From IMG/VR virus record IMGVR_UViG_3300025853_000043: DNA of 64,000 nucleotides; one strand, written 5' to 3'. Positions within the stretch are counted from its first letter, which is position 1. Every line of letters begins with the position of its first letter. The position numbers were made by a program, and so were the translations under genes. The stretch comes from a virus. This document shows, piece by piece, positions 9,523 to 24,063 of this stretch. The notes under the pieces were generated by a model. That model was given only the letters and a program-made list of their open reading frames with translations, searched no databases and was not told the origin of the DNA.

Positions 9523-10695
9523 ATGTCAGAACTACTAGAAAGTCGCTGGCAAGATACAAAAACAGCACTTCTTGAAGGCCTATCAGGCAATAAGAAAGCA
9601 GTAATGGCTTCAACATTAGAAAATACTCGCAAGTATTTGGCTGAAACTGCAACTGCTGGTGCTACATCTGCCGGTAACATCGCAACACTTAACCGTGTTA
9701 TCCTACCAGTGATTAGACGTGTTATGCCAACCGTCATCGCTAATGAAATCGTTGGTGTTCAACCAATGACTGGACCAGTTGGTCAAATTCACACACTACG
9801 TGTTCGCTACAGCGACACAGCAGGCTCAGGCGCAGCAGGCGCAGTAGCTGGTGAAGAAGCACTATCACCATTCAAAATCGCAGAAGCATATTCAGGTAAT
9901 GCTACAACAGCAAAAGCTGATGCAACTGCGGCACTAGAAGGTGCAGCTGGTAACAGACTAAGCATCCAGATCTTGAAACAGACCGTGGAAGCTAAATCAC
10001 GTAAGCTATCAGCACGTTGGACATTTGAAGCGGCACAAGACGCTCAAGCACAACACGGTATCGACGTAGAAGCAGAAATCATGGCTGCACTAGCACAAGA
10101 GATTACTGCAGAAATCGACCAAGAGATTCTAGCATCTCTAAACACACTAGCAGGAACAGGTACAGACACATTTAACCAAGCGGCTGTATCAGGTACTGCA
10201 ACATTCGTTGGTGACGAACATGCTGCACTAGCAGTATTAGTTAACCGCGCAGCAAACCGCATCGCACAGCGTACACGCCGTGGTGCAGGTAACTGGGCTG
10301 TTGTTTCACCAGCAATCCTAACCGTACTACAAAGTGCAACTACATCAGCATTTGCACGTACTACAGAGGGTACATTTGAAGCACCGACAAACACAAAAAT
10401 GGTTGGTACATTGAACAATGCAATGAAAGTATATGTAAACACATATGCAGCAGACGACGATGTACTAGTTGGTTACAAAGGTACTAGCGAATCAGACGCA
10501 GCAGCGTTCTACTGCCCATACATCCCATTGATGAGCAGTGGCGTTGTACTAGATCCGACATCATTCGAACCAGTTGTGAGCTTCATGACACGTTACGGAT
10601 ATGTTGAGCTATCAAACACAGCATCGTCGCTAGGTAACGCAGCTGACTACCTAGAAAAGGTAGAAGTAAACAGCGGAAACCTAAGCTTCAGCTAA
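9523..10695 (+). CDS. gp23: Major capsid protein (T4 gp23-like)
   Basis: GVQPMTGPVGQI, SRKLSARWTFEAAQD, EITAEIDQEI, FYCPYIPL, MTRYGY; probable maturation site LAE|T at residue 41. Confidence 0.97.
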   Translation: MSELLESRWQDTKTALLEGLSGNKKAVMASTLENTRKYLAETATAGATSAGNIATLNRVILPVIRRVMPTVIANEIVGVQPMTGPVGQIHTLRVRYSDTAGSGAAGAVAGEEALSPFKIAEAYSGNATTAKADATAALEGAAGNRLSIQILKQTVEAKSRKLSARWTFEAAQDAQAQHGIDVEAEIMAALAQEITAEIDQEILASLNTLAGTGTDTFNQAAVSGTATFVGDEHAALAVLVNRAANRIAQRTRRGAGNWAVVSPAILTVLQSATTSAFARTTEGTFEAPTNTKMVGTLNNAMKVYVNTYAADDDVLVGYKGTSESDAAAFYCPYIPLMSSGVVLDPTSFEPVVSFMTRYGYVELSNTASSLGNAADYLEKVEVNSGNLSFS

Positions 10696-10715: not shown

Positions 10716-10744
10716 AAAATAGGCCCTACGGGGCCTATTTTTTT
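10716..10744 (+). terminator. Intrinsic terminator after MCP
   Basis: aaaataggccc-tacg-gggcctatttt followed by a T run. Confidence 0.9.
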
Positions 10745-10757
10745 GGTATATATTACA

Positions 10758-11597
10758 ATGAAGTTTAATGTTAATAAACATATTGAATATAGAAACAATC
10801 GATTTACCAAAGTATCAATATCTAATCCTAAGTTATTAGGATTAGCTACAATAGAAATTAATCCAACAGAATTATGCAACAGAACTTGTAGTTTTTGTCC
10901 TAGAGTTAATCCTTTATTATATCCAAATCGTAATTTAAATATGACAATAGAAACAGCTCAATTAATTGTTGAACAATTATTAGATGCTGAGTATAATGGA
11001 GATATTAATATTACAGGATTTGGCGAACCATTATTAAATAAAGACATTGTACAAATATGTACTATATTTTCTAAACATTATCATACTGAATTAATAACAA
11101 ACGGCGATAATATTTTAAATGGTAAAATTACTTTACAAGATTTAGAATTCTTAGATTTATTAATTATTGATTGTTACGATGGCAAAGAACAAGTAAAAAA
11201 ATTTAAAAATTTACTTAAAAATAAAAAAAATAAATTTATATTGCGTCCACATTATGACACTGGAGATCCTGCATTAATTAATCAATATGGATTTAACAAC
11301 AGAGGTGGATTATTATACAAAAAATCTAACAGCAATCCTTGTTATATGCCGTCATATAAAGGATTTATAGATTGGAATGGAGATGTAAGACTTTGTTGTA
11401 ATGATTGGAGTAGGAAGCAATTACCATTTGGAAATATACATAATAATACATTTTCAAAAATATGGATGAATAATAATTTTGTAAAATTAAGACAAGAATT
11501 ATACAACGGTAATAGAAATTTTAGTAATGCTTGCGAGACTTGTGATGTATGTGGTACAAAAGTAGGAAAAAATAGTGCTGAATTATTTTTAAGCTAA
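10758..11597 (+). CDS. Radical SAM protein with SPASM/twitch domain
   Basis: CNRTCSFC motif, GFGEPLL, C-terminal C...DWNGDVRLCCND...CETC. ATG at 10758 preferred over the track's TTG at 10743. Confidence 0.88.
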   Translation: MKFNVNKHIEYRNNRFTKVSISNPKLLGLATIEINPTELCNRTCSFCPRVNPLLYPNRNLNMTIETAQLIVEQLLDAEYNGDINITGFGEPLLNKDIVQICTIFSKHYHTELITNGDNILNGKITLQDLEFLDLLIIDCYDGKEQVKKFKNLLKNKKNKFILRPHYDTGDPALINQYGFNNRGGLLYKKSNSNPCYMPSYKGFIDWNGDVRLCCNDWSRKQLPFGNIHNNTFSKIWMNNNFVKLRQELYNGNRNFSNACETCDVCGTKVGKNSAELFLS

Positions 11598-11604
11598 GTA
11601 CATA

Positions 11605-12306
11605 ATGGATATTAGTATTGAAAAAACTCCAAAACAAAAGTTAAGTAAATATGCAATTGATACTGCAAGCGGTATTAGTATTACTCATTTGCCTAACACA
11701 AGTCTTTCAAAGGTAAAAGATGCAGCAATAGAAATTAATGATTTAGCTGGAAGTTCAAAAGCTATGGCACATATTGCTGCACGTAATATACAAAGTGAAA
11801 CTGAACTACATGAAAATTGTATTGCAATGCGCAAAGCAGGTGTTGATAAAGTTTTACTTATTGGAGGCAGTACGTATCATGGAAAAGTTTTTCAAACATT
11901 TTATGAAGTAAGAGATGCTATAGAATCATATGGCTTTGATATGTATTGTGGTGTATATCCACAAAGTGAAACTTACTCTAACATGGCATACACAAAGTAT
12001 TTGCATTTTAAAGGAGGAATAAGTCAACTATGTTTCAATCCTAAAATGTTAAATACTTGGGAAAAGAAGACACGGTACGGTGTTGCAACTAACTGCTCTC
12101 TAGACGGTTTATGGAAATATGCAAAAATTTGTGGAATAACAGATAGTGTTGCTTATGCATTAGGCAATTTAAGAGGATTAACATACGTTACTATGAAAGG
12201 ATTTAACACGGTAAAGTTTGTAAAAGATTTAAGAAATGACAATCCTATACATCTTTATAATTTTGGAAAGTTAGATCAAACACTATTACAATTGGAGATG
12301 ATGTAA
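11605..12306 (+). CDS. Methylenetetrahydrofolate reductase (MetF)-like protein
   Basis: SIEKTPK, ITHLP, AHIAARNI, GVDKVLLIGG, GVYP, ISQLCF, KYAKICG resemble short alphaproteobacterial MTHFR-like flavoproteins. Confidence 0.6.
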   Translation: MDISIEKTPKQKLSKYAIDTASGISITHLPNTSLSKVKDAAIEINDLAGSSKAMAHIAARNIQSETELHENCIAMRKAGVDKVLLIGGSTYHGKVFQTFYEVRDAIESYGFDMYCGVYPQSETYSNMAYTKYLHFKGGISQLCFNPKMLNTWEKKTRYGVATNCSLDGLWKYAKICGITDSVAYALGNLRGLTYVTMKGFNTVKFVKDLRNDNPIHLYNFGKLDQTLLQLEMM

Positions 12307-12503
12307 TGCCAACAGGAACAATTTACAAATATAATAAAAATAGAAAGTTTAGTGTTATTAGACCTGATAACTGGAAAACAGGATTAATTGATGTACTATT
12401 TGAAACAATTACTTTTGATGCAAAACTAGGTGATCGTGTTGAATACGATCAAATACAAATAAAAAGTAAAAGATATGCACAAAATCTTAAAAAAATAGGT
12501 TGA
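12306..12503 (+). CDS. Cold-shock-domain-like OB-fold protein
   Basis: PTGTIYKYNKNRKFSVIRPD...GDRVEY...YAQNL mirrors CSD topology; canonical RNP aromatic residues are degenerate. Confidence 0.55.
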   Translation: MPTGTIYKYNKNRKFSVIRPDNWKTGLIDVLFETITFDAKLGDRVEYDQIQIKSKRYAQNLKKIG

Positions 12504-12528
12504 CCTTTGTGTATTCTTTTGCTATATT
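12500..12528 (+). promoter_or_regulatory. Sigma70 promoter
   Basis: TTGACC-N17-TATATT. Confidence 0.75.
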
Positions 12529-12534
12529 AAGAAC

Positions 12535-12814
12535 ATAACAAAGACGACGGTCCGAGTTAGATAGTGCAAGGAAACGCTGCTTGGTAGAGGCAGTAACTTG
12601 GCTAGTAGTTGTAGTGACAGCGCATGAGCAAGGAGACTTGAAGATGTGTTTTTGGAAGTAACTATCCGATGCTAGGCTTCGCTTTTATGGAAGGATCTAC
12701 AAAGGCGATTGTTGGTAATCCTTAATCCAACCTATCATATATTATTAATCGTAATACGCGATGCTGAACCTCGATTAATAAATTAAAAAGGTCTACTCTG
12801 GTAGGCCTTTTTTT
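12535..12814 (+). ncRNA. Putative ~280-nt structured non-coding RNA, family unknown
   Basis: No ORF of 60 aa or more between the promoter and terminator; several hand-identified stems, a GAGA tetraloop and a possible loop-loop pairing (see findings). Confidence 0.6.
12785..12814 (+). terminator. Intrinsic terminator
   Basis: aaaaaggtctac-tctg-gtaggccttttttt. Confidence 0.85.
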
Positions 12815-12844
12815 GTGAACATAATAACCCATTTTTATGTTTTT

Positions 12845-12852
12845 GATAAATA
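12845..12852 (+). promoter_or_regulatory. Late promoter GATAAATA
   Basis: Recurring motif at the head of the fibre operon. Confidence 0.65.
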
Positions 12853-12944
12853 CTTATGTTAAGGTAACGAGCCTCAACGAGGACTTATGAGGACCCAACC
12901 TCGTAGACCATAGAACGGCAAATGATTAAAAAAAGGAGAAAATC

Positions 12945-13310
12945 ATGGGACGCCCAGTAAACAAAAGAAACTTCGGTACAACCGGTGTAGACGCAACACC
13001 AAAGGTGCCAATTAGATTCCACGACGGATCAAGTTTAATTGAAGGATATATTCTTTCACAAAGAGGAACAAATAAATTTAATTGTTCAAACGACGGTGAC
13101 ACAATCACAAGAGTATGCAGACTTACATCAGACGGTTCAGCACCAAACGCAAATTTCGAATGTCAACTAATTGGTATCGGTGCAGGCGGCGGTGCAATTG
13201 CAATTAAGAAATTGTTCAACAGAACAGCAGTAGATTACAATAACAATCGTTATACATGGACAACAGAAGACGACTCTACAGAATCATTGCTAAGATTAAC
13301 TGCAATTTAA
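12945..13310 (+). CDS. Hypothetical virion-cluster protein
   Basis: 121-aa ORF with AAGGAG SD, first gene of a late operon. Confidence 0.7.
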   Translation: MGRPVNKRNFGTTGVDATPKVPIRFHDGSSLIEGYILSQRGTNKFNCSNDGDTITRVCRLTSDGSAPNANFECQLIGIGAGGGAIAIKKLFNRTAVDYNNNRYTWTTEDDSTESLLRLTAI

Positions 13311-13321
13311 GGAGTTAAACT

Positions 13322-14329
13322 ATGGGTATCTTTGTTAATCGAATAGGTGGTAACTACTACAAATTACAAGTTGATACAGGCGGAGATATTATTCTTGATG
13401 TCGGTACAACGGGTAAAGTTACCATTGACGGTGACTTAGATGTGTTAGGTGAACAAACCAGTGTTGGATCCACTCAACTTGTTGTAGACGATAATACTAT
13501 TACCGTTAACAACGGAGAGACTGGAAATGGTATAACACTAGGAACTGCCGGACTTATTATGGATCGCGGTACTGATGATGATGCTCACTTCTTTTTTGAT
13601 GAATCATTAGTCGGTAAAGGTGCTGAAATTGATGGTGCATTTGTAACAAGAATTGCCACAGGCGATTTAGTTAGCTTATACACCAATGCAATATTAACAA
13701 ACGGCGAGCCACTATATTTGGTAGGTACTGGTACAGGACTTGCAACGGTAACTGGTACAACTGATTATGAAAAACAAATTTGGAATTACACAGGCGATAA
13801 CATTAACTTAGAACCTTTAAATCCAGATGGATTAGTTGCACCTAACGATGACGATGCTTTACTCAATGTAAAAGGTTTACAGGACTATGTCCGAGACTAT
13901 TTTGCAATTAACTTTCAAGAAAAAATTACCACAGGAACTTTAACTCCTACAAGAGTTGAAGCATTTGATACAGAAACTGGTGGAGTTACAAGTAGAGTTG
14001 AAATTAGTGTAGATGATACAATAATTGCAACTTTTTATGAAACTAGAGTAGAATTTGAAAATTTAAGATTTGACGATGACACTATTACTAGTAACGGAAT
14101 CAACGGTGATGTTGTGCTAAGAGCAGCAGGAACTGGATTTATTAAAATGGATGATTACACAAATTATACCATTCAAACAGATCCAGCTAGTCCTCCAACA
14201 GAAGGCACATTATTGTATAGTAAAACATTAGGAGATGGTGGTACAGGTTTGTATTTTAAAAATGAAGACGGGACATCAGACGAATTGGTTAGTAGGAATA
14301 AAGCATTACTTTATAGTATTATATTTTAA
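13322..14329 (+). CDS. Virion structural / fibre-like protein
   Basis: G/T/D-rich beta repeats (VTIDGDLDVLG, VDDNTITVNNGE, GLIMDRGT) typical of fibre shafts. Confidence 0.6.
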   Translation: MGIFVNRIGGNYYKLQVDTGGDIILDVGTTGKVTIDGDLDVLGEQTSVGSTQLVVDDNTITVNNGETGNGITLGTAGLIMDRGTDDDAHFFFDESLVGKGAEIDGAFVTRIATGDLVSLYTNAILTNGEPLYLVGTGTGLATVTGTTDYEKQIWNYTGDNINLEPLNPDGLVAPNDDDALLNVKGLQDYVRDYFAINFQEKITTGTLTPTRVEAFDTETGGVTSRVEISVDDTIIATFYETRVEFENLRFDDDTITSNGINGDVVLRAAGTGFIKMDDYTNYTIQTDPASPPTEGTLLYSKTLGDGGTGLYFKNEDGTSDELVSRNKALLYSIIF

Positions 14330-14340
14330 GGATAAACAAC

Positions 14341-14673
14341 ATGGCAATAGTAAACGCAGCAATAGCAACAACAGATACGACACTACTTACCGTGCCAGCA
14401 GGCAAGAAGTATGCTATCACTACTTTGCTTGTTTGTAATACTGCTACAGATGATGGTACAGGTGCAGGAGACACTAAGTTTGATTGTCACGTCATACCTG
14501 ATGGACAAAGTAAAGCAACAACAAATTTAATCATTAATGATTTAGAAGTTGCAGCAGCAGATACTTTTACGTTTGCAGCTGAAAGATTAATTTTAGAAGA
14601 AGGTGATAGAGTTGTAGTTGTTGGAACAACACCTACAAATTTAAGCGCCACACTTAGTTATTTGGAAGTTTAA
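14341..14673 (+). CDS. Small virion structural protein
   Basis: 110-aa beta-rich ORF (LLTVPAGKKYAITTLLVCN...LILEEGDRV) between fibre genes. Confidence 0.55.
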   Translation: MAIVNAAIATTDTTLLTVPAGKKYAITTLLVCNTATDDGTGAGDTKFDCHVIPDGQSKATTNLIINDLEVAAADTFTFAAERLILEEGDRVVVVGTTPTNLSATLSYLEV

Positions 14674-17600
14674 ATGAGTTTTATTAAGAAGCAGTCATTA
14701 CACAAAAGAAAAGTAGGAGATAAGTCATTTATTCTTACTGCCGACGGCAACATTGAGATGAATCTTGCTGCCGGTAAAACATTTACGGTAGATGCAGATT
14801 TCATAGCAACTGGAGATGTATCAGGTCCAAAAACAGAAAATGTTTTTTATGTTACAAAAGATGGTAGTGATGATAATGACGGCCGAAGTTCTGACGGTAA
14901 AGGTGCATTTGCAACAATTAAAAAAGCAGCTGAAGTAGCACCTTCTGGCTCAACAATCATTGTTGCACCAGGCGATTATTTTGAAGAAAATCCTATTACA
15001 CTTAAAGACTTTGTAACCATTACAGGACAAGGTGAATTACGTAATACAAGATTATTTCCAAAAAATAATACATCAGACTTCTTCTATATGGGTAATGGCT
15101 GTTACTTGTATCAACTTACATTTAGGGCACTTCGTGCGCCAGGATGGTGTGTAAAGATTAGACCAGGTGCATTGGTTACAACATCTCCTTATGTACAAAA
15201 CTGCACAAATATGAACGGTCCTTGGTTAAACGACGGTACTGAATTTATACCGTTTGAAACCGTTCAAATTGAAGGAATTGAACCGGGCGCAAGACCACTA
15301 ACGTTAGCAGATAATCCAAGTCTTCCATTTGACAAACAAGTAAACTTAACCGGTGGCGGTGGCGGGATGTTTGTCGACGGCGACGAATATGATCCAGCAT
15401 CACTTGTGTTTTCATTTGTTGCAGACGCATTTACACAAATTGCTCAAGGTGGTCCAGGATTTGAAGTTACTAACTTTGGTTATACTCAGATTGTTAGTTG
15501 CTTCTCTGTTTTCTGTTCAACAGGATTCAAAACAACAAAAGGCGGCTATTTAAGTATCTCTAACTCGGTATCTGACTTTGGTACATTTGGTTGTGTTGCA
15601 GATGGATTTTATCCAATTGCATATACACAAGCTGTGCCAACTGAAGATTATTTTAGTACCGTTGGTAGTATTACAATCAATCAACCAGGAGTTGGATATA
15701 CCAGCAATCCTACAATTACAATCGAATCCCCAGACGGTGCAGGTGGTGTAACAGCTACCGCTACTGGACAAGTCGACCTTACCACAGGACAATTAGCTGC
15801 TATTACAATCACAAATAATGGTAGTGGATATACATCAGTACCAACCGTTACAATTACAGGCGGTGGCGCAACTATTCAAGCAGAAGGTACCGTAAACTTA
15901 ACAACAAATAGTGTTATATCATTAGCAAGTTTACGAGATAAACCACAAACTGGTAGTATTATAAAATTTGATGACGACGATACATATTACTACATTACAG
16001 CAAACTCAATTACAAAGACGCCATTTAATTATAATGAAGAAACTTGTAAAAGAGATGTAAGACGTATTGTTGATGCTGTAACAGGTGATATTGTTTTAGG
16101 AACATATTATCAAACAACAGCAGCCGCTACTAGCTATTTACGTAGTACATCAACAAAGGTTATTTTAGATCAATTAGAACCTACAATATATGCAATTGAA
16201 GCTGCTAGAGATCAAATGAAAGCAAGAACAACAAATCTTGCAATGAAAGAAGAAATTGATCAGCGTTTTAATATTATTACAACAACTTTAGCAGCAGGTG
16301 ACAGCACTGAAACAGAATTTGTTGGTAGTGACTTTGTAAATGCATTAAATGATATTAATAGTATTGATAATGAAATAATTGAAGCAAAAAATAACATTCT
16401 TGCTAATAGAGATTTTATTATAGAAGAACTTACTGCTTATATTAATGATCAGTTTACAGAACTAAGTTATAACCAAACAAAATATACTAGTGAAATGTCA
16501 GAATTTATTACAAGTATGGCATACTACGTAGGCTTTAATGGAAGCGATCATAAAGTTTTAAGGGCTGCTCGCGAATGGAGCAATAGTAGAGCAAGATTTA
16601 ATGATATGATGATATCTAGCTTTAGATATTTACAACAACGTTTCCTTGCATTATCTGAAGTACAAGCAAGTGCAGTTGCAGTTACAAATGTTAATGAAGC
16701 ATTTGAACAACTTGCAAACATTATTGACGAAGGCGATAGTGCAGGTATTACTACAGAATTTCCGGCAGCAGTTGGTACTAATCAAAATGAAATTGATGCT
16801 AGAGATCAATTAATTGCAAATATGGATTTCTTGAAAGCAGAATTTATTGCATATCTTGATAGCATTAACTCAACTATAAGTTATACTCAAAGTAAGTTTG
16901 AACAAGATGTTGAAAATGCTGTAAATAGTGTAATTTACGATATTATGTACGGAGGTAATACTGCAACTAAAAAAGAAGCTGATTATTACTTCAATAGCGA
17001 AACTTGGAGTTCTAATTATACTCAAGTTGAAAGACAAGCTATTATTGACTCATGGGCAAGAACACGTTTTGCAATGCAACGTATTGTAAGAGGATTGTCA
17101 ATTACTCCAACTACTGGTAATGCGCAAACACAAGATTTTACAAGTGGCACTGCAACTCAAATCGAAGCAAATATTGCTGATAGCTTGATTCAGTATTACG
17201 AAACCGTTTTGACCGATTTAGCATTAACTAATCTACCACTTGATGTTTTACCGTTATACGATGATGAATCTGTATTACAACAAGCAGCAGCAAATACTAT
17301 TTTAGCACAAAGAGATAATTTCATTGAGGATGCAATTGCTTATAATTTAGCAAACAACCCAACTCTAACATATGATGTATCAAAATGTAAAAGAGATGTA
17401 GAATATATTATAGATGCAATATACAGCGATGCACAATTAGGCACAAACCATCGCAGTATTACTGCTGGTTTAGCTTACCAGAGAGCTAATGTTGCTTATT
17501 TGAATACAGAACAAAAACCTGCTACAATTATTGCTATGCGTGAAGCAAAACGTTTGTTAGTTGCAGCGGCAAATGGTAATTCAACATTCCAAACTGATGT

Positions 17601-20600
17601 AAGCAATTTGTTCGATGTAGTGCTTGACATTATTGAATTTAATCAATTACCAAGTGAAGGAACCGTGTATCCTGAACCAGGGCCTGCAAGTACTGAATTA
17701 ATTAATTCAACAAATCAACTAATTGCAAACAAAGATTTTTTAGTAGCTGAAGTTATTGCAAAGATTGCAGTAGATAACTTTGTTTATGATCAAGCAAAGT
17801 GCGAAAGAGATACTGGAATCATACTAGATGGTGTATATTATGATGCAGCATTTGGAACCAATTATAATGCAGTGACAAGCGGTCTTGCATATCAAAGAGG
17901 TAATAGTGCAAAAGTAATTAGTGATCAAATTACAGAAACCGTTGGTGCATTAACATTTGCAAAAGGTGAAGCAGCAACAGCTTTAGTATCTAATACTACC
18001 GCAGTGTCTAGAAGTAATGCAGCATTTGATGAAATTATTGATATTATTCAAAATGGAGCCGAAGGTACAGATCAAGCAGCAGATCCTTTAACGTTTCCTA
18101 ATCCAACAAGTGCAACCGCAGCACAAATTGCTGCAAAAGATCAACTACAGAATAACAGAGACTTCTTAGCAGCGGAAGCAGTATCTTACATTCAAAATAA
18201 CTATCAAAACTTTACTTATAATAGTGAAAAGTGTGAACGTGATGTTGGATTAATCATGGATGCTGTTGCACTTGATGTTGTATTAGGAACAAACTTTAAT
18301 GCAGTTACAGCAGGTTTAGCATATCAACGTGCAAGCAATGACTACTTACAAGACAATCAAAAAATACAAACACTTAGTGCTTTACGTCAACTTAAAAAAG
18401 AAATAGTAGAAATTGGATTAAGTGACGATGCTGAACCATTAGCTGAAGCAGCTATGGACGAAGTTATTGATATTTTAGAAAATGGTGTAATTAGTACTGA
18501 TACAGCCGCGGACGCACTAGTATTTCCTGCACCTAGTAGTCTACCAACTGCAAATGCAGTTGAAGCAAAAGATCAACTTGTTGCAAACAAAGAGTTTATT
18601 AAAGACGAAATAATTGCATGGATTGGTGTAAACTATCCTGCTTTAACATATGATGCAGTAAAATGTGAACGTGATGTTGGATATATTATTGATGCATTAT
18701 GTCATGACATTTTATACGGTGGAAATAGTGCCACTAAAATTGCAGCAGAAAGTTACTTTGTTGGTGCTGCAAGTCAACTAGGATCAGGTCAACAAGCTGC
18801 GACCGTAGCAGCATATCAGAGACTAAAAGATGTTGTTGGTGACGTAGTTATGGAATTATCTGTTGTTAAATCAGCAGGTAATGCGTTAAATCAAGATACT
18901 TCAGGAACACCAGCAAGTTCTACTGAAGCAGATGATGTAGAAGGTTTAGTTCAAATAATTGAAGATGTAATTGCAGCAGGAAACATAAGCGGGTTACCTG
19001 CAACACAATATCCATCTTTAACTTGGGCTGCAAATGATTTACAAGAAGCATATAGTCAAATTAAAGGAAATAAAGAATTTGTACAAGAGCGTATATTAAT
19101 TCATATTGCAAATAATTTCCAAAGTTTTGATTATGATGAAGTAAAATGTCGTAGAGATGTAGGAATTATGATAGAAGCAGTTGCTTATGATGCAGCAATT
19201 GGTACAAATTACAATTCTGTAACAGCAGGTCTAGCCTATCAAAGAGCAAATAGTTCATATGTTTTAAGTGGACAAAACTTACAAACGGTGCTGGCAATTA
19301 GATATCTAAGAGATCAAATTGCAGCTAACGGAACTTTACAAAGTAGTTTTAGAAGTGCTACAACTGCTGGGTTTAATGAAATAATTGATATTATCGAAAA
19401 TGGTGTAGTAAGCACAGATACAGCAGCTGACGCTCTTGTATTTCCAGATCCTGGTATAGATGCAAATCAAGTCAATGCAAAAGATAGAATGATTGCTAAC
19501 AAAGAATATGCAGCAAAAGAAACTTCTGCATTTGTTACAAATAACTATCCAGCGGTAGTTTTTGATAGCACAAAATGTGAAAGAGACGTAAAATATATCA
19601 TTGATGCATTATGTTATGATATTATGTATGGCGGCAATCTTGCAACTAAGCAAGCCGCAGAAAGTTACTTTGTTGGTGCTGCAAGTCAGTTAGGTGCTGG
19701 ACAAGCTACCGCTACCGTTGCTGCATACAACGAATTAGCAAACTTGCTATCAGATATTGTTCAAAACATTGCTCATGCAAGTAACGAACAAGTTGTTGTA
19801 ACACAAGACACAAGCGGAAGCGCATCAGATGCAGGTACTGGTGGTGAAATACAAGACTTGTTACAAATAATTGAAGATGTTATTGCAGCAGGAAATATTA
19901 CTAATATTCCAGCAGATTCTAACACTGATATTACTTGGACTAGCGTATTAAATCAAGATAATTTTACTTCATTAGTTGCTACTACAAGTGATTATCAAAA
20001 TTTAGTTATAAACTATATAGAAAGAACATTTACAAGAACATTTACATTTAATGCTACAAAATGTAATAGAGATACCAAGTACATTGTTGATGCTTTAACA
20101 TATGATATTATTTACGGTGGTAATGCTGCAACACTTGATGCTGCTAGAAGCTATTATGTTGGAACAACAAGTCAAGTTACAGGACAACAACAAGAAACAG
20201 CAAATGCTCTTGGATGGATTAAAACTTTATTAGGTGATGTGTTATTAGATGTTGCAGTTGCCGATCCAGAACAAACTGCCGAAACACAAGATGTTACAGC
20301 AGGTGCAGCAAGTGCAACTGAAGTTACTAGAGCAGAAACATTATTACAAATTATTCAAGATGTTATTACTGATGGTTTAGATCAACTGCCAACAGAAACA
20401 TTCCCTTCTACAGGGTGGATTTCTGCAGGAATTCAAACTGCAATTGATAACTTAGTAAGTGAAAAAACAACAATTGTTAATGATACTATAAGTTACATTG
20501 AAACAACATATAATGGCTTCAGTTATGATATTGATAAGTGTTCAAGAGATACAGGATACATTATTGATGCTGTTACACACGATTTACTTTATCAAGGCAA

Positions 20601-23600
20601 CATTGCGACACTTATTGCAACTAGAGCTTATTTCTTAGGTACAGCTAATTATTTGCCAGATGAACAAAAAGATATAACCGTTGCAGCATATGAACATTTA
20701 GCTCAAGTTGCAGCTGATTGTATAGAAGGTACAGCAGTTACTCCGTCTGTAGGAAACACAGAACCACAAGTTCTTGGCGGAGCATATGGTACATCTACAG
20801 AATCAGGTCAAGCTGTATTATTGTTTAGAATTCCAAAAAATGCAATTGACAACGGAACACTTGTAGGTACACCTGCTGAAATACAACCAGATTTTGCTTG
20901 GTTGCCAGCAACTATAAAATCAGCAGCAACAGACATGTTAGCTCAAAAAGTTAATATTCAAAACGGTGTTATTTCTTATATTACAGATAATTTAATTGAT
21001 TTTGAATATAATATTGTAAAGTGTAAAAGAGATACAGGATACATTATTGAAGCATTAATATATGATTTAATGTATGGTGGTAACAAACAAACACGTAGAG
21101 CTGCACAAGCATATTACAATGGTGCAATTTTAGGAGCAGCAAAAGTTGGTAATGCAGATCAAGTTTTAGTTACAGCATATTCATATTACTACTTAGGTGA
21201 TATATTAGCAAAAGTTGCAAAGAACGAAACGGTTACAAAAAGTTACAACAATACTGAAGTACAGGTAATTACAACACCCGATAGTGATGATACAACAGCA
21301 ACTAGAATTGAATTGTTAATTGATAGAATAGCTTTAAGTGTTCTTGAAGGATACACAACAGGTTGGCAAGAGAATAATCATAACTACGAATTAGGTAGTG
21401 GTGCTTACTTAACTGAAAGAAACACTATATTAGCAGACTTAGAAAGTATTGTAACAACAACAATTGACGACTTAAATGCTGAATACGGTGGTGAAGCAAC
21501 TATTACTATCTTCCCAGGTGTTATTAGTGTAACACAAGATAAAAAGGCAAATCTTTATAATGTTAGTACAATTTCTACATCGGGACATGCATTTGAATAT
21601 GTAGGTGCAGGTGTTGATTATAATGCTCTACCTTTCTTTGGCGGCACAGCAATTTCAGAAAACGAAATTGTACAACTTAACCAAGGTAAAGTATTTGCTG
21701 GTGGTACGGTTGACCAAATTGGTAACTTTAGAGTTGGTGACTTATTTGCAGTTAATGCTCTAACAGGTGCGATTGATCTAAATGCTAACCAAATTAGTTT
21801 AGAAGGCTTGACAAGTGTTGGTCCGTTTATTAGAAATGGTATTCCAGTTGGTGTCGAATTAAAAGAGGTTAGCGACAATACTAACTTACTTGCAAGTACA
21901 GGTACTCAAGACTTCCAAACTGCTCCTACACAAAGAGCTGTTGGAATTTATGTAGAAAATAGATATCTAAACAAATTAACTGGTGGTACGGTTACTGGTA
22001 ATATTGTATTGAACGGTGACTTTGATGTTAACGGTGATGTTATTAGTACTGATACAAGTGGTACATTTAACCTACTTAATACAAGTGCTACTACTATAGA
22101 AGCATTTGGTGATGCAACTACCATTAACATGGGTGCGCCTACAGGTACATTTACAATTAATCCAGATTTAGTTGTAGAAGGTGATTTAACCGTTAATGGT
22201 GATATTGTACTTACAGGTGATTACTCACTAAACATTCCAGATGAGAGCTTACAAGCGTATAGCATCAGTACTGAAGGTAGCTTAGACTACGTTAGTATTA
22301 ACACAAGAACAGACGAAGAAAAAATTACTTTTGGAGAAAGACCACAAGTTGAAATTCAAAATCTAATAGAGTCTACAAGCACTACAACAGGTGCATTAGT
22401 AGTTGATGGCGGTGTTGGAATAGCAAAAAGTTTGTATGTAGGTATTGATTTTACTGCTAATGGTAATGTTATTCTTGGCGATGATAGAGCAGTTGACACT
22501 CTTGATATTAATGCTACAACAGATATTGATGTTCCAGATAACGCAACCGATGTGTTTAGAATTCATGAAAATATTAATGATTACATTAGTATAAACACAA
22601 CAGATAATTCAGAAGTTGTAGAATTTGGCGCAACTCCTAATGTAATAATTCTAAATGCAGATGATGCTACTGATAATGTAACTGGTGCATTACAAGTTAC
22701 AGGTGGTATTAGCACTCAAGTTAACGTTCATGCAGGACAAGATATTGTTGCTGACAGAGACATAATTGCAGACAGAGATATTGAAGTAAATGGTACTAAT
22801 ATCATTACTGACGAAACTGGAACATTTAATGTCTTTAACACAAACGCAACTACAATCAATGCATTTGGCGATGCTACTGCAATCAACATTGGTGCAGATA
22901 CCGGTACATTAACCGTTGCAAACGAAATAACAATTTTTGATAGTGTGGAAGCAATCCAAATTCCAGTCGGTACTGATTTAGAACGTCCAACAGAAGCAAC
23001 AGGTCAAATACGTTTTAACACTGACAGCACAAGTTTTGAAGGCTATGACGGAACAGCGTGGGGTAGCTTAGGCGGAGTAAGAGATGTTGATCAAGATACA
23101 TTTATTAGACCAGAATCTACTCCAGGTGCAGACGAAGATACTATTACATTCCATACAAACGATGTTCAAAGGATGTCATTAGGCAATACTTTGTTAAACA
23201 TTGATGCTACCGTAAAAGTAACAATAGATAGCACAGAAGTATCATCTAATTATAACACAGGCGCATTAGTAGTAGCCGGAGGTGTTGGTATTGCTAAAGA
23301 CTTGTATGTTCAAGGATTTATTAGTGGTAATAATTCGGGTGTGTTACAGCTAACAGATCTTGCAAGTGACAAGATTTTAATCAAAGCTGACACAATTGAA
23401 TCTCCAGAATCTATTAAATGGATATCAAATGCACCTGATAGTGCAGCAGATGATATTGTTTATCCAATCAGTTTAGCACACCATAGTGTAAGCGGATCGC
23501 CAGCTGTTGGAAGCGGTACAGGACTAAGATTTGAACTTGAAACATCAAACAGCAATTATGAAATTGGCGGACAAATTGATTCAATTGTGCAAGACATAAC

Positions 23601-24063
23601 TGGAAACCAAGAAGACTTTGACATGGTATTCAGCACTATGAATTCTGGTTCTGTTACTGAAAAGTTTAGACTGAGTGAAAATACAGCAACAATTACAACA
23701 AGTTTACAAGTTAATCAAAACTTAACCGTAACAGGATTGTTAGACGCAGCAAGTATTACAGCAAGTATATATTCAGATGATAGTACTGAAATGCTTGATG
23801 CAATTAACAATAGACTTATTGTAACTACAGGTCAAATTGGTGAACTAACACTTACAACAGATCTTGAAGTACAATACGGTGGTACTGGTGTAAGCACATT
23901 TACAACAAATGGTATACTTTATGGTAACACAGCAGATCCAGTACAAGTTACAGATGCAGCAGGTACAAGTGATGCAAGCGAATCGTTCCAAATACTTACC
24001 GTAACAAGTGATGTTGATGCAACACCAGTTTGGACAGATACTATCGACGGTGGTAGCTTTTAA
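14674..24063 (+). CDS. Giant virion fibre/spike protein A (3129 aa): pectin-lyase-like beta-helix, ~12 helical repeats, fibre shaft
   Basis: VFYVTKDGSDDNDG...FATIKKAA, TSPYVQNCT, repeated KCxRD motifs, TGALVVxGGVGIAK repeats. Confidence 0.75.
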   Translation: MSFIKKQSLHKRKVGDKSFILTADGNIEMNLAAGKTFTVDADFIATGDVSGPKTENVFYVTKDGSDDNDGRSSDGKGAFATIKKAAEVAPSGSTIIVAPGDYFEENPITLKDFVTITGQGELRNTRLFPKNNTSDFFYMGNGCYLYQLTFRALRAPGWCVKIRPGALVTTSPYVQNCTNMNGPWLNDGTEFIPFETVQIEGIEPGARPLTLADNPSLPFDKQVNLTGGGGGMFVDGDEYDPASLVFSFVADAFTQIAQGGPGFEVTNFGYTQIVSCFSVFCSTGFKTTKGGYLSISNSVSDFGTFGCVADGFYPIAYTQAVPTEDYFSTVGSITINQPGVGYTSNPTITIESPDGAGGVTATATGQVDLTTGQLAAITITNNGSGYTSVPTVTITGGGATIQAEGTVNLTTNSVISLASLRDKPQTGSIIKFDDDDTYYYITANSITKTPFNYNEETCKRDVRRIVDAVTGDIVLGTYYQTTAAATSYLRSTSTKVILDQLEPTIYAIEAARDQMKARTTNLAMKEEIDQRFNIITTTLAAGDSTETEFVGSDFVNALNDINSIDNEIIEAKNNILANRDFIIEELTAYINDQFTELSYNQTKYTSEMSEFITSMAYYVGFNGSDHKVLRAAREWSNSRARFNDMMISSFRYLQQRFLALSEVQASAVAVTNVNEAFEQLANIIDEGDSAGITTEFPAAVGTNQNEIDARDQLIANMDFLKAEFIAYLDSINSTISYTQSKFEQDVENAVNSVIYDIMYGGNTATKKEADYYFNSETWSSNYTQVERQAIIDSWARTRFAMQRIVRGLSITPTTGNAQTQDFTSGTATQIEANIADSLIQYYETVLTDLALTNLPLDVLPLYDDESVLQQAAANTILAQRDNFIEDAIAYNLANNPTLTYDVSKCKRDVEYIIDAIYSDAQLGTNHRSITAGLAYQRANVAYLNTEQKPATIIAMREAKRLLVAAANGNSTFQTDVSNLFDVVLDIIEFNQLPSEGTVYPEPGPASTELINSTNQLIANKDFLVAEVIAKIAVDNFVYDQAKCERDTGIILDGVYYDAAFGTNYNAVTSGLAYQRGNSAKVISDQITETVGALTFAKGEAATALVSNTTAVSRSNAAFDEIIDIIQNGAEGTDQAADPLTFPNPTSATAAQIAAKDQLQNNRDFLAAEAVSYIQNNYQNFTYNSEKCERDVGLIMDAVALDVVLGTNFNAVTAGLAYQRASNDYLQDNQKIQTLSALRQLKKEIVEIGLSDDAEPLAEAAMDEVIDILENGVISTDTAADALVFPAPSSLPTANAVEAKDQLVANKEFIKDEIIAWIGVNYPALTYDAVKCERDVGYIIDALCHDILYGGNSATKIAAESYFVGAASQLGSGQQAATVAAYQRLKDVVGDVVMELSVVKSAGNALNQDTSGTPASSTEADDVEGLVQIIEDVIAAGNISGLPATQYPSLTWAANDLQEAYSQIKGNKEFVQERILIHIANNFQSFDYDEVKCRRDVGIMIEAVAYDAAIGTNYNSVTAGLAYQRANSSYVLSGQNLQTVLAIRYLRDQIAANGTLQSSFRSATTAGFNEIIDIIENGVVSTDTAADALVFPDPGIDANQVNAKDRMIANKEYAAKETSAFVTNNYPAVVFDSTKCERDVKYIIDALCYDIMYGGNLATKQAAESYFVGAASQLGAGQATATVAAYNELANLLSDIVQNIAHASNEQVVVTQDTSGSASDAGTGGEIQDLLQIIEDVIAAGNITNIPADSNTDITWTSVLNQDNFTSLVATTSDYQNLVINYIERTFTRTFTFNATKCNRDTKYIVDALTYDIIYGGNAATLDAARSYYVGTTSQVTGQQQETANALGWIKTLLGDVLLDVAVADPEQTAETQDVTAGAASATEVTRAETLLQIIQDVITDGLDQLPTETFPSTGWISAGIQTAIDNLVSEKTTIVNDTISYIETTYNGFSYDIDKCSRDTGYIIDAVTHDLLYQGNIATLIATRAYFLGTANYLPDEQKDITVAAYEHLAQVAADCIEGTAVTPSVGNTEPQVLGGAYGTSTESGQAVLLFRIPKNAIDNGTLVGTPAEIQPDFAWLPATIKSAATDMLAQKVNIQNGVISYITDNLIDFEYNIVKCKRDTGYIIEALIYDLMYGGNKQTRRAAQAYYNGAILGAAKVGNADQVLVTAYSYYYLGDILAKVAKNETVTKSYNNTEVQVITTPDSDDTTATRIELLIDRIALSVLEGYTTGWQENNHNYELGSGAYLTERNTILADLESIVTTTIDDLNAEYGGEATITIFPGVISVTQDKKANLYNVSTISTSGHAFEYVGAGVDYNALPFFGGTAISENEIVQLNQGKVFAGGTVDQIGNFRVGDLFAVNALTGAIDLNANQISLEGLTSVGPFIRNGIPVGVELKEVSDNTNLLASTGTQDFQTAPTQRAVGIYVENRYLNKLTGGTVTGNIVLNGDFDVNGDVISTDTSGTFNLLNTSATTIEAFGDATTINMGAPTGTFTINPDLVVEGDLTVNGDIVLTGDYSLNIPDESLQAYSISTEGSLDYVSINTRTDEEKITFGERPQVEIQNLIESTSTTTGALVVDGGVGIAKSLYVGIDFTANGNVILGDDRAVDTLDINATTDIDVPDNATDVFRIHENINDYISINTTDNSEVVEFGATPNVIILNADDATDNVTGALQVTGGISTQVNVHAGQDIVADRDIIADRDIEVNGTNIITDETGTFNVFNTNATTINAFGDATAINIGADTGTLTVANEITIFDSVEAIQIPVGTDLERPTEATGQIRFNTDSTSFEGYDGTAWGSLGGVRDVDQDTFIRPESTPGADEDTITFHTNDVQRMSLGNTLLNIDATVKVTIDSTEVSSNYNTGALVVAGGVGIAKDLYVQGFISGNNSGVLQLTDLASDKILIKADTIESPESIKWISNAPDSAADDIVYPISLAHHSVSGSPAVGSGTGLRFELETSNSNYEIGGQIDSIVQDITGNQEDFDMVFSTMNSGSVTEKFRLSENTATITTSLQVNQNLTVTGLLDAASITASIYSDDSTEMLDAINNRLIVTTGQIGELTLTTDLEVQYGGTGVSTFTTNGILYGNTADPVQVTDAAGTSDASESFQILTVTSDVDATPVWTDTIDGGSF
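16030..21120 (+). repeat. Tandem ~138-162-aa protein repeats Y(D/N)xxKCxRDxxxIxDAxxxD(LGTN/YGGN)
   Basis: Cys codons at 17386, 17800, 18232, 18664, 19147, 19576, 20062, 20539 and 21022, plus one near 16044 and two degenerate copies. Confidence 0.85.

Follow-up and report, generated by a model that had tools for sequence, protein, structure and literature searches.

A probable stand-alone manA-family RNA gene downstream of the major capsid gene of an uncultured giant phage

GOLLD and ROOL are phage-encoded, highly structured non-coding RNAs that are often found near tRNA genes, and that form RNA-only multimers by means of loop-loop contacts. Another structured phage RNA, the manA motif (Rfam family RF01745), was graded a probable riboswitch candidate located in 5' untranslated regions (UTRs) (Weinberg et al. 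2010, PMC2864571), and Rfam types the family as Cis-reg. A recent cryo-electron microscopy (cryo-EM) preprint reported that manA RNAs form RNA-only cages (Ren et al., 2026, bioRxiv 10.64898/2026.07.01.735769). In that study, manA_A0F1 formed an icosahedral 60-mer cage built from pentamers by means of intermolecular L5-L7', L8-L9' and L1-L1' contacts, Photobacterium manA RNAs formed decamers using L6-P6', L5-L7' and L3-L8' contacts, and the loop pairs were intermolecular in every manA structure solved. Here we describe a 64,000-nucleotide (nt) stretch of viral DNA (IMG/VR record IMGVR_UViG_3300025853_000043; hereafter the window), in which positions 12535-12814 very probably constitute a stand-alone manA-family RNA gene of an uncultured giant phage whose capsid is of the T4 type. 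This gene and all window features given below are on the plus strand. The RNA is like GOLLD and ROOL in being phage-encoded, highly structured and non-coding, but the latter are several times longer, have a dihedral instead of a pentamer-based symmetry, and are unrelated in sequence and fold; neither gave an Rfam match in the window.

At the Rfam gathering thresholds, the whole window returned no match to any family. In a permissive Rfam scan of 12400-12960, positions 12541-12741 matched the manA model over its full length (model positions 1-192 of 192) with a score of 39.2 bits, which fails the gathering score of 55.2 bits, an operational cut-off and not a structural feature. The E-value of this match was 1.2e-8 in the 561-nt search and 1.3e-6 for the whole 64-kb window. 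Using the 121-amino-acid (aa) protein encoded downstream of the RNA, we collected 64 IMG/VR loci (denoted here by three-digit numbers, such as L001, as distinct from the RNA loops L1 to L9). A homologous RNA was present at the same distance upstream of the 121-aa gene in 41 of them, and 23 were without a manA RNA. A number of these same-position RNAs reach the Rfam threshold, with 89.3 bits for L046, 85.3 for L018, 66.5 for L062, 63.7 for L013, 62.5 for L012, 59 for L001 and 55.4 for both L006 and L009. A covariance model, R1, for which the window RNA and 12 close relatives were the only input, matched 42 relatives in one search and 77 in a wider one. It recovered the Rfam-passing RNAs with E-values of 1e-12 to 1e-66, among them L046 (74.5 bits), L018, L062 and L013, in which the position, promoter and terminator are as in the window. 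By way of R1, the chain of homology from the window RNA to accepted manA members is unbroken. A pattern scan for the signature of helix P3 picked up at least 120 viral contigs, and the entire RNA was found in 77 of the 80 loci that were then searched.

The significant full-length match, together with the homologues above threshold, argues that the window RNA is a divergent manA member that is missed by the Rfam cut-off. The initial annotation, made from the letters of the window, had proposed a possibly undescribed RNA, which a confident Rfam hit would turn into a known one. In substance there is such a hit, with the window copy itself sub-threshold, and what we are dealing with is a known family and not a new RNA class. 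A more canonical-looking manA variant, ACAAGACGUUGU...GGCUGAAUAAG, is located at L025:2648-2870, where the promoter and the 65-aa gene in front of it are the same as in the window. This variant was recognized by eye, based on the promoter and the ACAAGACGUUGU...GGCUGAAUAAG arrangement, and was missed by R1 and scored below the Rfam gathering score, indicating that neither model detects the full breadth of the family.

In our model, the manA-family core spans 12537-12740 (204 nt) and contains all the helices P1-P9 in the order of the family. P1 (12537-45/12550-58) carries a GACG loop and is interrupted by a 3x3 internal loop in the window lineage, and P2 (12560-64/12732-36) is the long-range closing helix. 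Within it lie the invariant P3a (12567-70/12597-600) and P3b (12577-82/12588-93), and P4 (12602-07/12670-75), which opens into a junction bearing the hairpins P5 (12608-09/12617-18), P6, composed of P6a (12620-25/12644-49) and the GAGA-capped P6b (12629-32/12637-40), and P7 (12652-56/12665-69). The remaining helices are P8a (12679-86/12701-08), P8b (12688-91/12696-99) and P9 (12711-15/12727-31). The region is more stable than shuffled sequences (z = -2.46 for the fold energy), and the minimum-energy fold agrees with the model except around P5 and P7. When 13 close sequences were aligned with plain MAFFT, 88.6% of the cells were paired and 32 of the 72 pairs had changed on both sides, a result that none of 500 shuffles reached. 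For 72 distinct sequences in an alignment fitted to the model, 92.6% of the cells were paired, versus 64.2% in shuffled controls and 35-47% when the partner strand was slid, and changes on both sides were found in 56 of the 64 pairs. Every helix shows such changes except the invariant P3a; in P2 (GAUAG/CUAUC), 98% was paired and all five pairs had changed on both sides.

Several stems of the initial annotation are recovered as covariation-supported helices: its CUGC/GCAG hairpin is P3b, the GCGCAU/AUGUGU stem with its CAAG-GAGA-CUUG cap corresponds to P6a and P6b, UCGCUUUU/AAAGGCGA is P8a, and GUUGG/CCAAC is P9. Its long-range pairing of GAUAGU (12560-65) with ACUAUC (12661-66) was rejected: there was no change on both sides, the covariation score was under that of all 500 shuffles, GAUAG pairs with CUAUC at 12732-36 instead (P2), and ACUA (12661-64) is the L7 loop, whose partner is L5. 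The proposed stem CCGAGUUA/UAACUUGG largely fails as well, with 75.5% pairing versus 70.5% in shuffles, weak support for a helix that competes with P1 and P3a, both of which are supported by the wider family. The repeat GCAAGGARAC, which had also been pointed out, is indeed present in two copies but looks like a product of chance, since the second copy, in P6b, varies freely in relatives.

When compared to the manA motif as described in 2010, the window RNA shares the P1-P9 helix order over all 192 model positions, a GACG-type L1, an 11-nt L9, complementary L5/L7 and L8/L9 loops, and an origin in aquatic phages. It differs in that the P3 internal loop is GGAAACG and not CUGAAUAAaCUU, P6 has an additional internal loop followed by another stem with the GAGA cap, and P1 contains the 3x3 internal loop. 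Moreover, it comes from a giant phage with a capsid protein resembling those of the GAP32 and Vibrio 2.275.O types of phage and not from a T4-like cyanophage or Photobacterium, and it appears to be a terminated stand-alone unit and not a 5' UTR element.

The core is preceded by a predicted sigma70-type promoter (12500-12528), consisting of a -35 box TTGACC (12500-05), a 17-nt spacer, the TG of an extended -10 (12520-21) and a -10 box TATATT (12523-28). This promoter, noticed already in the initial annotation, has 10 of the 12 consensus positions besides the extended -10, and is among the best matches in a scan of 11000-14500; for the extended promoter pattern it is the only site in the 64-kb window. 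The sequence GGTTGAC...TGYTATATT, ending 7-13 nt before P1, was found in all 20 distinct variants at the capsid-gene slot, and the strict promoter pattern in 50 of the 76 wider-family members. At the other end, the predicted intrinsic terminator at 12785-12814 (A5, GGUCUAC, loop, GUAGGCC, U7) proved to be as first described, a hairpin with 12-nt arms flanked by A5 and T7. A GC-rich hairpin with a U-run after a short variable spacer is again present in all 20 distinct variants, with compensatory changes in its stem across loci (GGTCTGC/GCAGGCC, GCTCG/CGAGC, GCCCGA/TCGGGC and GGCATG/CATGCC). A simple terminator detector scored 28 of the 77 wider-family loci, which is a lower bound, since many of the others run into extra RNA domains or tRNAs.

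Transcription of the RNA would be driven by a strong sigma70-type promoter of its own, and the primary transcript, of ~280 nt, would start at the foot of P1 and end at its own intrinsic terminator; we infer a transcription start at ~12535, two bases 5' of P1. The strength and type of the promoter suggest that it is probably used by the unmodified host polymerase, presumably early in infection. The claim that the stretch lacks an open reading frame (ORF) of 60 aa or more was borne out, the longest on either strand being 36 aa. A coding explanation was discarded: the longest ORFs (26, 25 and 36 aa) are not conserved, and relatives differ by indels of 1-4 nt.

Between the core and the terminator, the window contains an AU-rich hairpin, UAUUAAUCG/CGAUUAAUA (12742-12781), with a 10-bp stem and a 20-nt loop. 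This stem, too, had been noted, and it proved to be a perfect 10-bp inverted repeat, but it is absent from all 19 other variants at the slot, which have 10-15 nt between P2 and the terminator, so that the hairpin is lineage-specific. What lies between the core and the terminator position differs in other members of the family, where optional hairpins of another kind, additional RNA domains or tRNAs are found. In L139:4856-4990 and L086:3904-4040 (coordinates of the oriented copies), the manA core is followed by ORF-free, strongly folding domains with no terminator, and these are modular multi-domain RNAs.

How the RNA may behave is suggested by its loops. The L5 loop UAGU (12612-12615) is complementary to the L7 loop ACUA (12661-12664), and the L8 loop AGGA (12692-12695) to UCCU (12719-12722), which occupies positions 4-7 of the 11-nt L9 loop. 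The latter pair forms the core of the AAGGAU/AUCCUU kissing interaction that had been suggested from the window alone, and it covaries: relatives have at least eight complementary L8/L9 types (AGGA/UCCU, CAGA/UCUG, AUGA/UCAU, AAUGA/UCAUU, GAGA/UCUC, GUGG/UCAC, GCUGA/UCAGU and AUGGA/UCCAU). For L5/L7, the UAGU/ACUA of the window is replaced in relatives by UGGU/ACCA, UGU/ACA, UGC/GCA or UAU/AUA, and in a fixed-register alignment 92% was paired, with A-U changed into G-C in six rows. In a loop-swap test, L9 loops were exchanged among distinct loop pairs and the mean best helix was taken as the statistic. For L8-L9 in the class of the window, this gave 3.81 versus 2.78 +/- 0.18 in shuffles, with 0 of 1000 shuffles as high; in the corresponding test of L5-L7 the values were 3.69 versus 3.45 +/- 0.10, with 8 of 1000 shuffles as high. 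None of five control loop combinations was significant in this test. In a second class of relatives, L3 (ACCA) is complementary to L8 (UGGU), and the two loop classes mirror the two interface sets of the preprint.

The window RNA is like manA_A0F1 in having a GACG L1, a potential 4-bp L5-L7 pairing, a potential 4-bp L8-L9 pairing that involves positions 4-7 of its 11-nt L9, and an L3 without complement in L8, unlike the Photobacterium type. The sequences of the pairs differ, being UGGU/ACCA and CUGU/ACAG in manA_A0F1 versus UAGU/ACUA and AGGA/UCCU in the window. Further differences are the much longer P6 of the window RNA, a different P8, and ~75 extra 3' nt on its natural transcript, which include the extra hairpin and the terminator. 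The covarying L5-L7 and L8-L9 pairs, combined with the contacts between molecules in the cryo-EM structures, make self-assembly into a pentamer-based RNA particle the most likely behaviour of the window RNA, by homology to the solved members.

An alternative, to which we give a modest chance, is that L5-L7 and L8-L9 are tertiary contacts within one molecule, and that the monomer is a compact protein- or ligand-binding particle, for instance a sponge or decoy for an RNA-binding protein of the host or the phage. Covariation of the loops is equally expected within and between molecules, P8 and P9 are adjacent at a distance of 2 nt, the concentration in vivo may be far under the ~3 mg/mL used in the preprint, and the gene of a cold-shock-fold protein often adjoins the RNA. 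The intermolecular nature of the loop pairs in all solved manA structures speaks against a monomer, as does the fact that the window RNA retains the loop lengths and loop positions of manA_A0F1.

Several considerations weigh against our interpretation of a manA-family RNA gene whose product self-assembles. The window copy is sub-threshold, so that its assignment to manA depends on the significance of the match, on the architecture and on intermediate homologues, and the promoter, start site and early timing are predictions. The alignments used for the 72-sequence and fixed-register counts were fitted to the model and are biased toward the structure, and covariation cannot separate intramolecular from intermolecular pairing. 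The preprint with the cage structures is unreviewed, and the RNAs studied in it were other members of the family, refolded in vitro at high concentration (10.64898/2026.07.01.735769). Finally, the P6 arm is longer and P1 weaker than in manA_A0F1, so that the stoichiometry of a window RNA particle is not predictable.

The RNA could also be the structured 3' end of the mRNA of the upstream genes (for a radical-SAM protein, a 233-aa protein and a 65-aa protein), either stabilizing this mRNA or being processed out of it. These genes are on the same strand, the 65-aa ORF and the RNA are not separated by a terminator in the window, and the -35 box overlaps with the stop codon of this ORF. We consider this improbable in view of the near-consensus extended -10 promoter, whose distance from P1 is held constant also in loci that have other genes upstream or lack these. 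An upstream terminator is located immediately 5' of the RNA promoter in L006 and L012-L017, which lack the 65-aa ORF. Transcription from the RNA's own promoter and as an mRNA tail could coexist.

Downstream of the RNA lies a separate unit. A late-type promoter motif, GATAAATAC, is present at 12845-53, one of four plus strand copies in the window where one is expected. From just 3' of this motif, through the Shine-Dalgarno sequence and up to the ATG of the 121-aa gene (12945-13310), a late structural gene, extends a match to the freshwater-2 RNA (RF02980; 12871-12947). The window copy, with 44.9 bits versus a gathering score of 49.9, is sub-threshold; copies in front of the same gene score 50.9-68.1 bits in ~30 loci. 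Its position suggests that this orphan motif of Rfam serves as the 5' leader of a late structural gene that is conserved in this giant-phage clade. A box, CATAATAACCCATTTTT, is found at 12820-12836, 3' of the RNA terminator and 5' of the late-type promoter, and is conserved in almost every related locus, also where manA is lacking. The 23 loci without manA retain the downstream unit, and their slot is empty or filled with an unrelated small ORF. Since promoter and terminator of the RNA are conserved, and since the next gene comes with a late-type promoter and a leader of its own, the RNA appears to be a stand-alone gene, in agreement with the earlier suggestion of an independent phage RNA, and it would not control the next gene.

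That the RNA is instead a cis-regulatory leader or riboswitch, in which a ligand controls read-through of the 12785-12814 terminator into the 121-aa gene, would fit the Rfam typing, the 2010 grading and its position on the same strand ~200 nt upstream of that gene, but is very improbable, because the terminator lies outside the conserved core without a conserved alternative anti-terminator pairing, the spacer between core and terminator is variable in length and content, the late-type promoter and leader persist in the 23 loci without the RNA, relatives in tRNA arrays have no downstream ORF to control, and the identity of the RNA does not track that of the flanking genes. An overlapping, competing expression platform directly upstream of an ORF, by which a riboswitch is recognized, is not present.

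The 65-aa ORF (12306-12503), the stop codon of which overlaps with the -35 box, had been described as cold-shock-like, and at the level of the predicted fold this is supported. Its full-length match to the Pfam cold-shock domain (CSD, PF00313) had an E-value of 0.061 and 13.6 bits versus a cut-off of 27, and thus remains below the gathering score. A profile of 14 homologues, searched against the PDB, listed cold-shock proteins first, with E-values of 0.003-0.014. The AlphaFold model has five strands and a mean confidence (pLDDT, predicted local distance difference test) of 87.1, and the top 25 Foldseek matches in the PDB were all cold-shock proteins or domains, with template modeling (TM) scores of 0.68-0.79, reaching 0.72-0.79 for CspA, CspB, CspE and the cold-shock domain of YB-1. 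The modeled protein thus resembles CspA and CspB in length and in its five-stranded beta-barrel, and differs from them in that RNP1 (KGFGFI) is K(F)SVI or KGVI and RNP2 (VFVHF) is DVLFE, and in the marginal sequence similarity.

In many loci, the 65-aa ORF lies 36-60 nt 5' of the RNA; at the capsid-gene slot, it precedes the RNA in about half of the lineages. The RNA often occurs without this ORF, as in L006, L013, L046, L059 and L062, and the protein without the RNA in L193-195, where the late-promoter region follows directly. An obligatory link between the two is thereby ruled out; a functional link is possible, and the cold-shock-fold protein would be a candidate chaperone or partner of the RNA.

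The ORF at 9523-10695 encodes a major capsid protein of the T4 gp23 type (Pfam E-value 2.8e-101), the closest cultured relatives of which, with 66-69% identity, are found in Sinorhizobium phage Phosso, Vibrio phage 2.275.O and Cronobacter phage GAP32, phages of 350-470 kb. On its 3' side follow the genes for the radical-SAM/SPASM protein, the 233-aa ORF, the 65-aa ORF, ~440 nt poor in ORFs, and the 121-aa ORF. The radical-SAM protein with a SPASM domain (10743-11597; Pfam E-values 3.8e-12 and 6.3e-07), directly 3' of the capsid gene, was found only in the window among the compared loci, apart from one distant match in L104. A few genes 3' of the RNA lies a single ORF of 3129 aa (14674-24063). 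Vibrio phage 2.275.O and Sinorhizobium phage Phosso gave no manA match, and with the RNA lacking from these closest cultured capsid relatives, no laboratory model was found. A blastn search with the region and the core against 50,697 GenBank phage records returned no real match, and there are no tRNA or tmRNA genes in the 64-kb window.

In the wider family, 39 of the 77 copies are located just 3' of a capsid gene, and at least 11 lie within tRNA arrays of the same orientation, some of them 2-10 nt from a tRNA. Same-family RNAs in such arrays were seen at L100:4154-4439 and in L083, L113, L102, L128, L099, L095, L124, L096 and L148; in L100, a tRNA-Gly begins 7 nt 3' of the RNA, and in L128 the RNA lies 3 nt 3' of a tRNA-Gly. 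The close, same-strand arrangement with tRNAs suggests co-transcription and processing of the RNase P/Z type. The window represents the single-core form of canonical size in the giant-phage capsid-gene hot spot. In the same slot, glutamine riboswitch aptamers (RF01739) were found at L018:2214-2264, L046:2298-2345 and L050:2733-2781, with 50-56 bits versus a gathering score of 35, so that structured RNAs collect in the slot that separates the capsid gene from the 121-aa gene. In L033, the RNA is 99.5% identical to that of the window, with 91% identity for the capsid protein and 79% for the 121-aa protein, whereas in L001 these proteins are 97% and 93% identical and the RNA only 69%. RNA identity does not track the flanking genes, which indicates that the RNA is a cassette exchanged among these phages.

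The manA motif has been an orphan riboswitch candidate since 2010, and this locus with its at least 120 relatives supplies a natural context: a variable slot after the major capsid gene in a clade of giant aquatic phages, or tRNA arrays, often with a cold-shock-fold protein adjoining. The family extends well below the Rfam threshold, and for the manA copies studied here the data argue against the 'Cis-reg' label of Rfam. The natural covariation of both kissing-loop pairs offers ready-made specificity variants for assembly work. As to function, we venture, as a long shot, that the early RNA would form pentamer-based shells that act as a phage compartment, or as a decoy that, for example, sequesters a host nuclease, a defence sensor or an RNA chaperone, or that partners with the cold-shock-fold protein. 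If true, this would be the first biological role for manA cages, and would account for the movement of the cassette among giant phages irrespective of the genes on either side.

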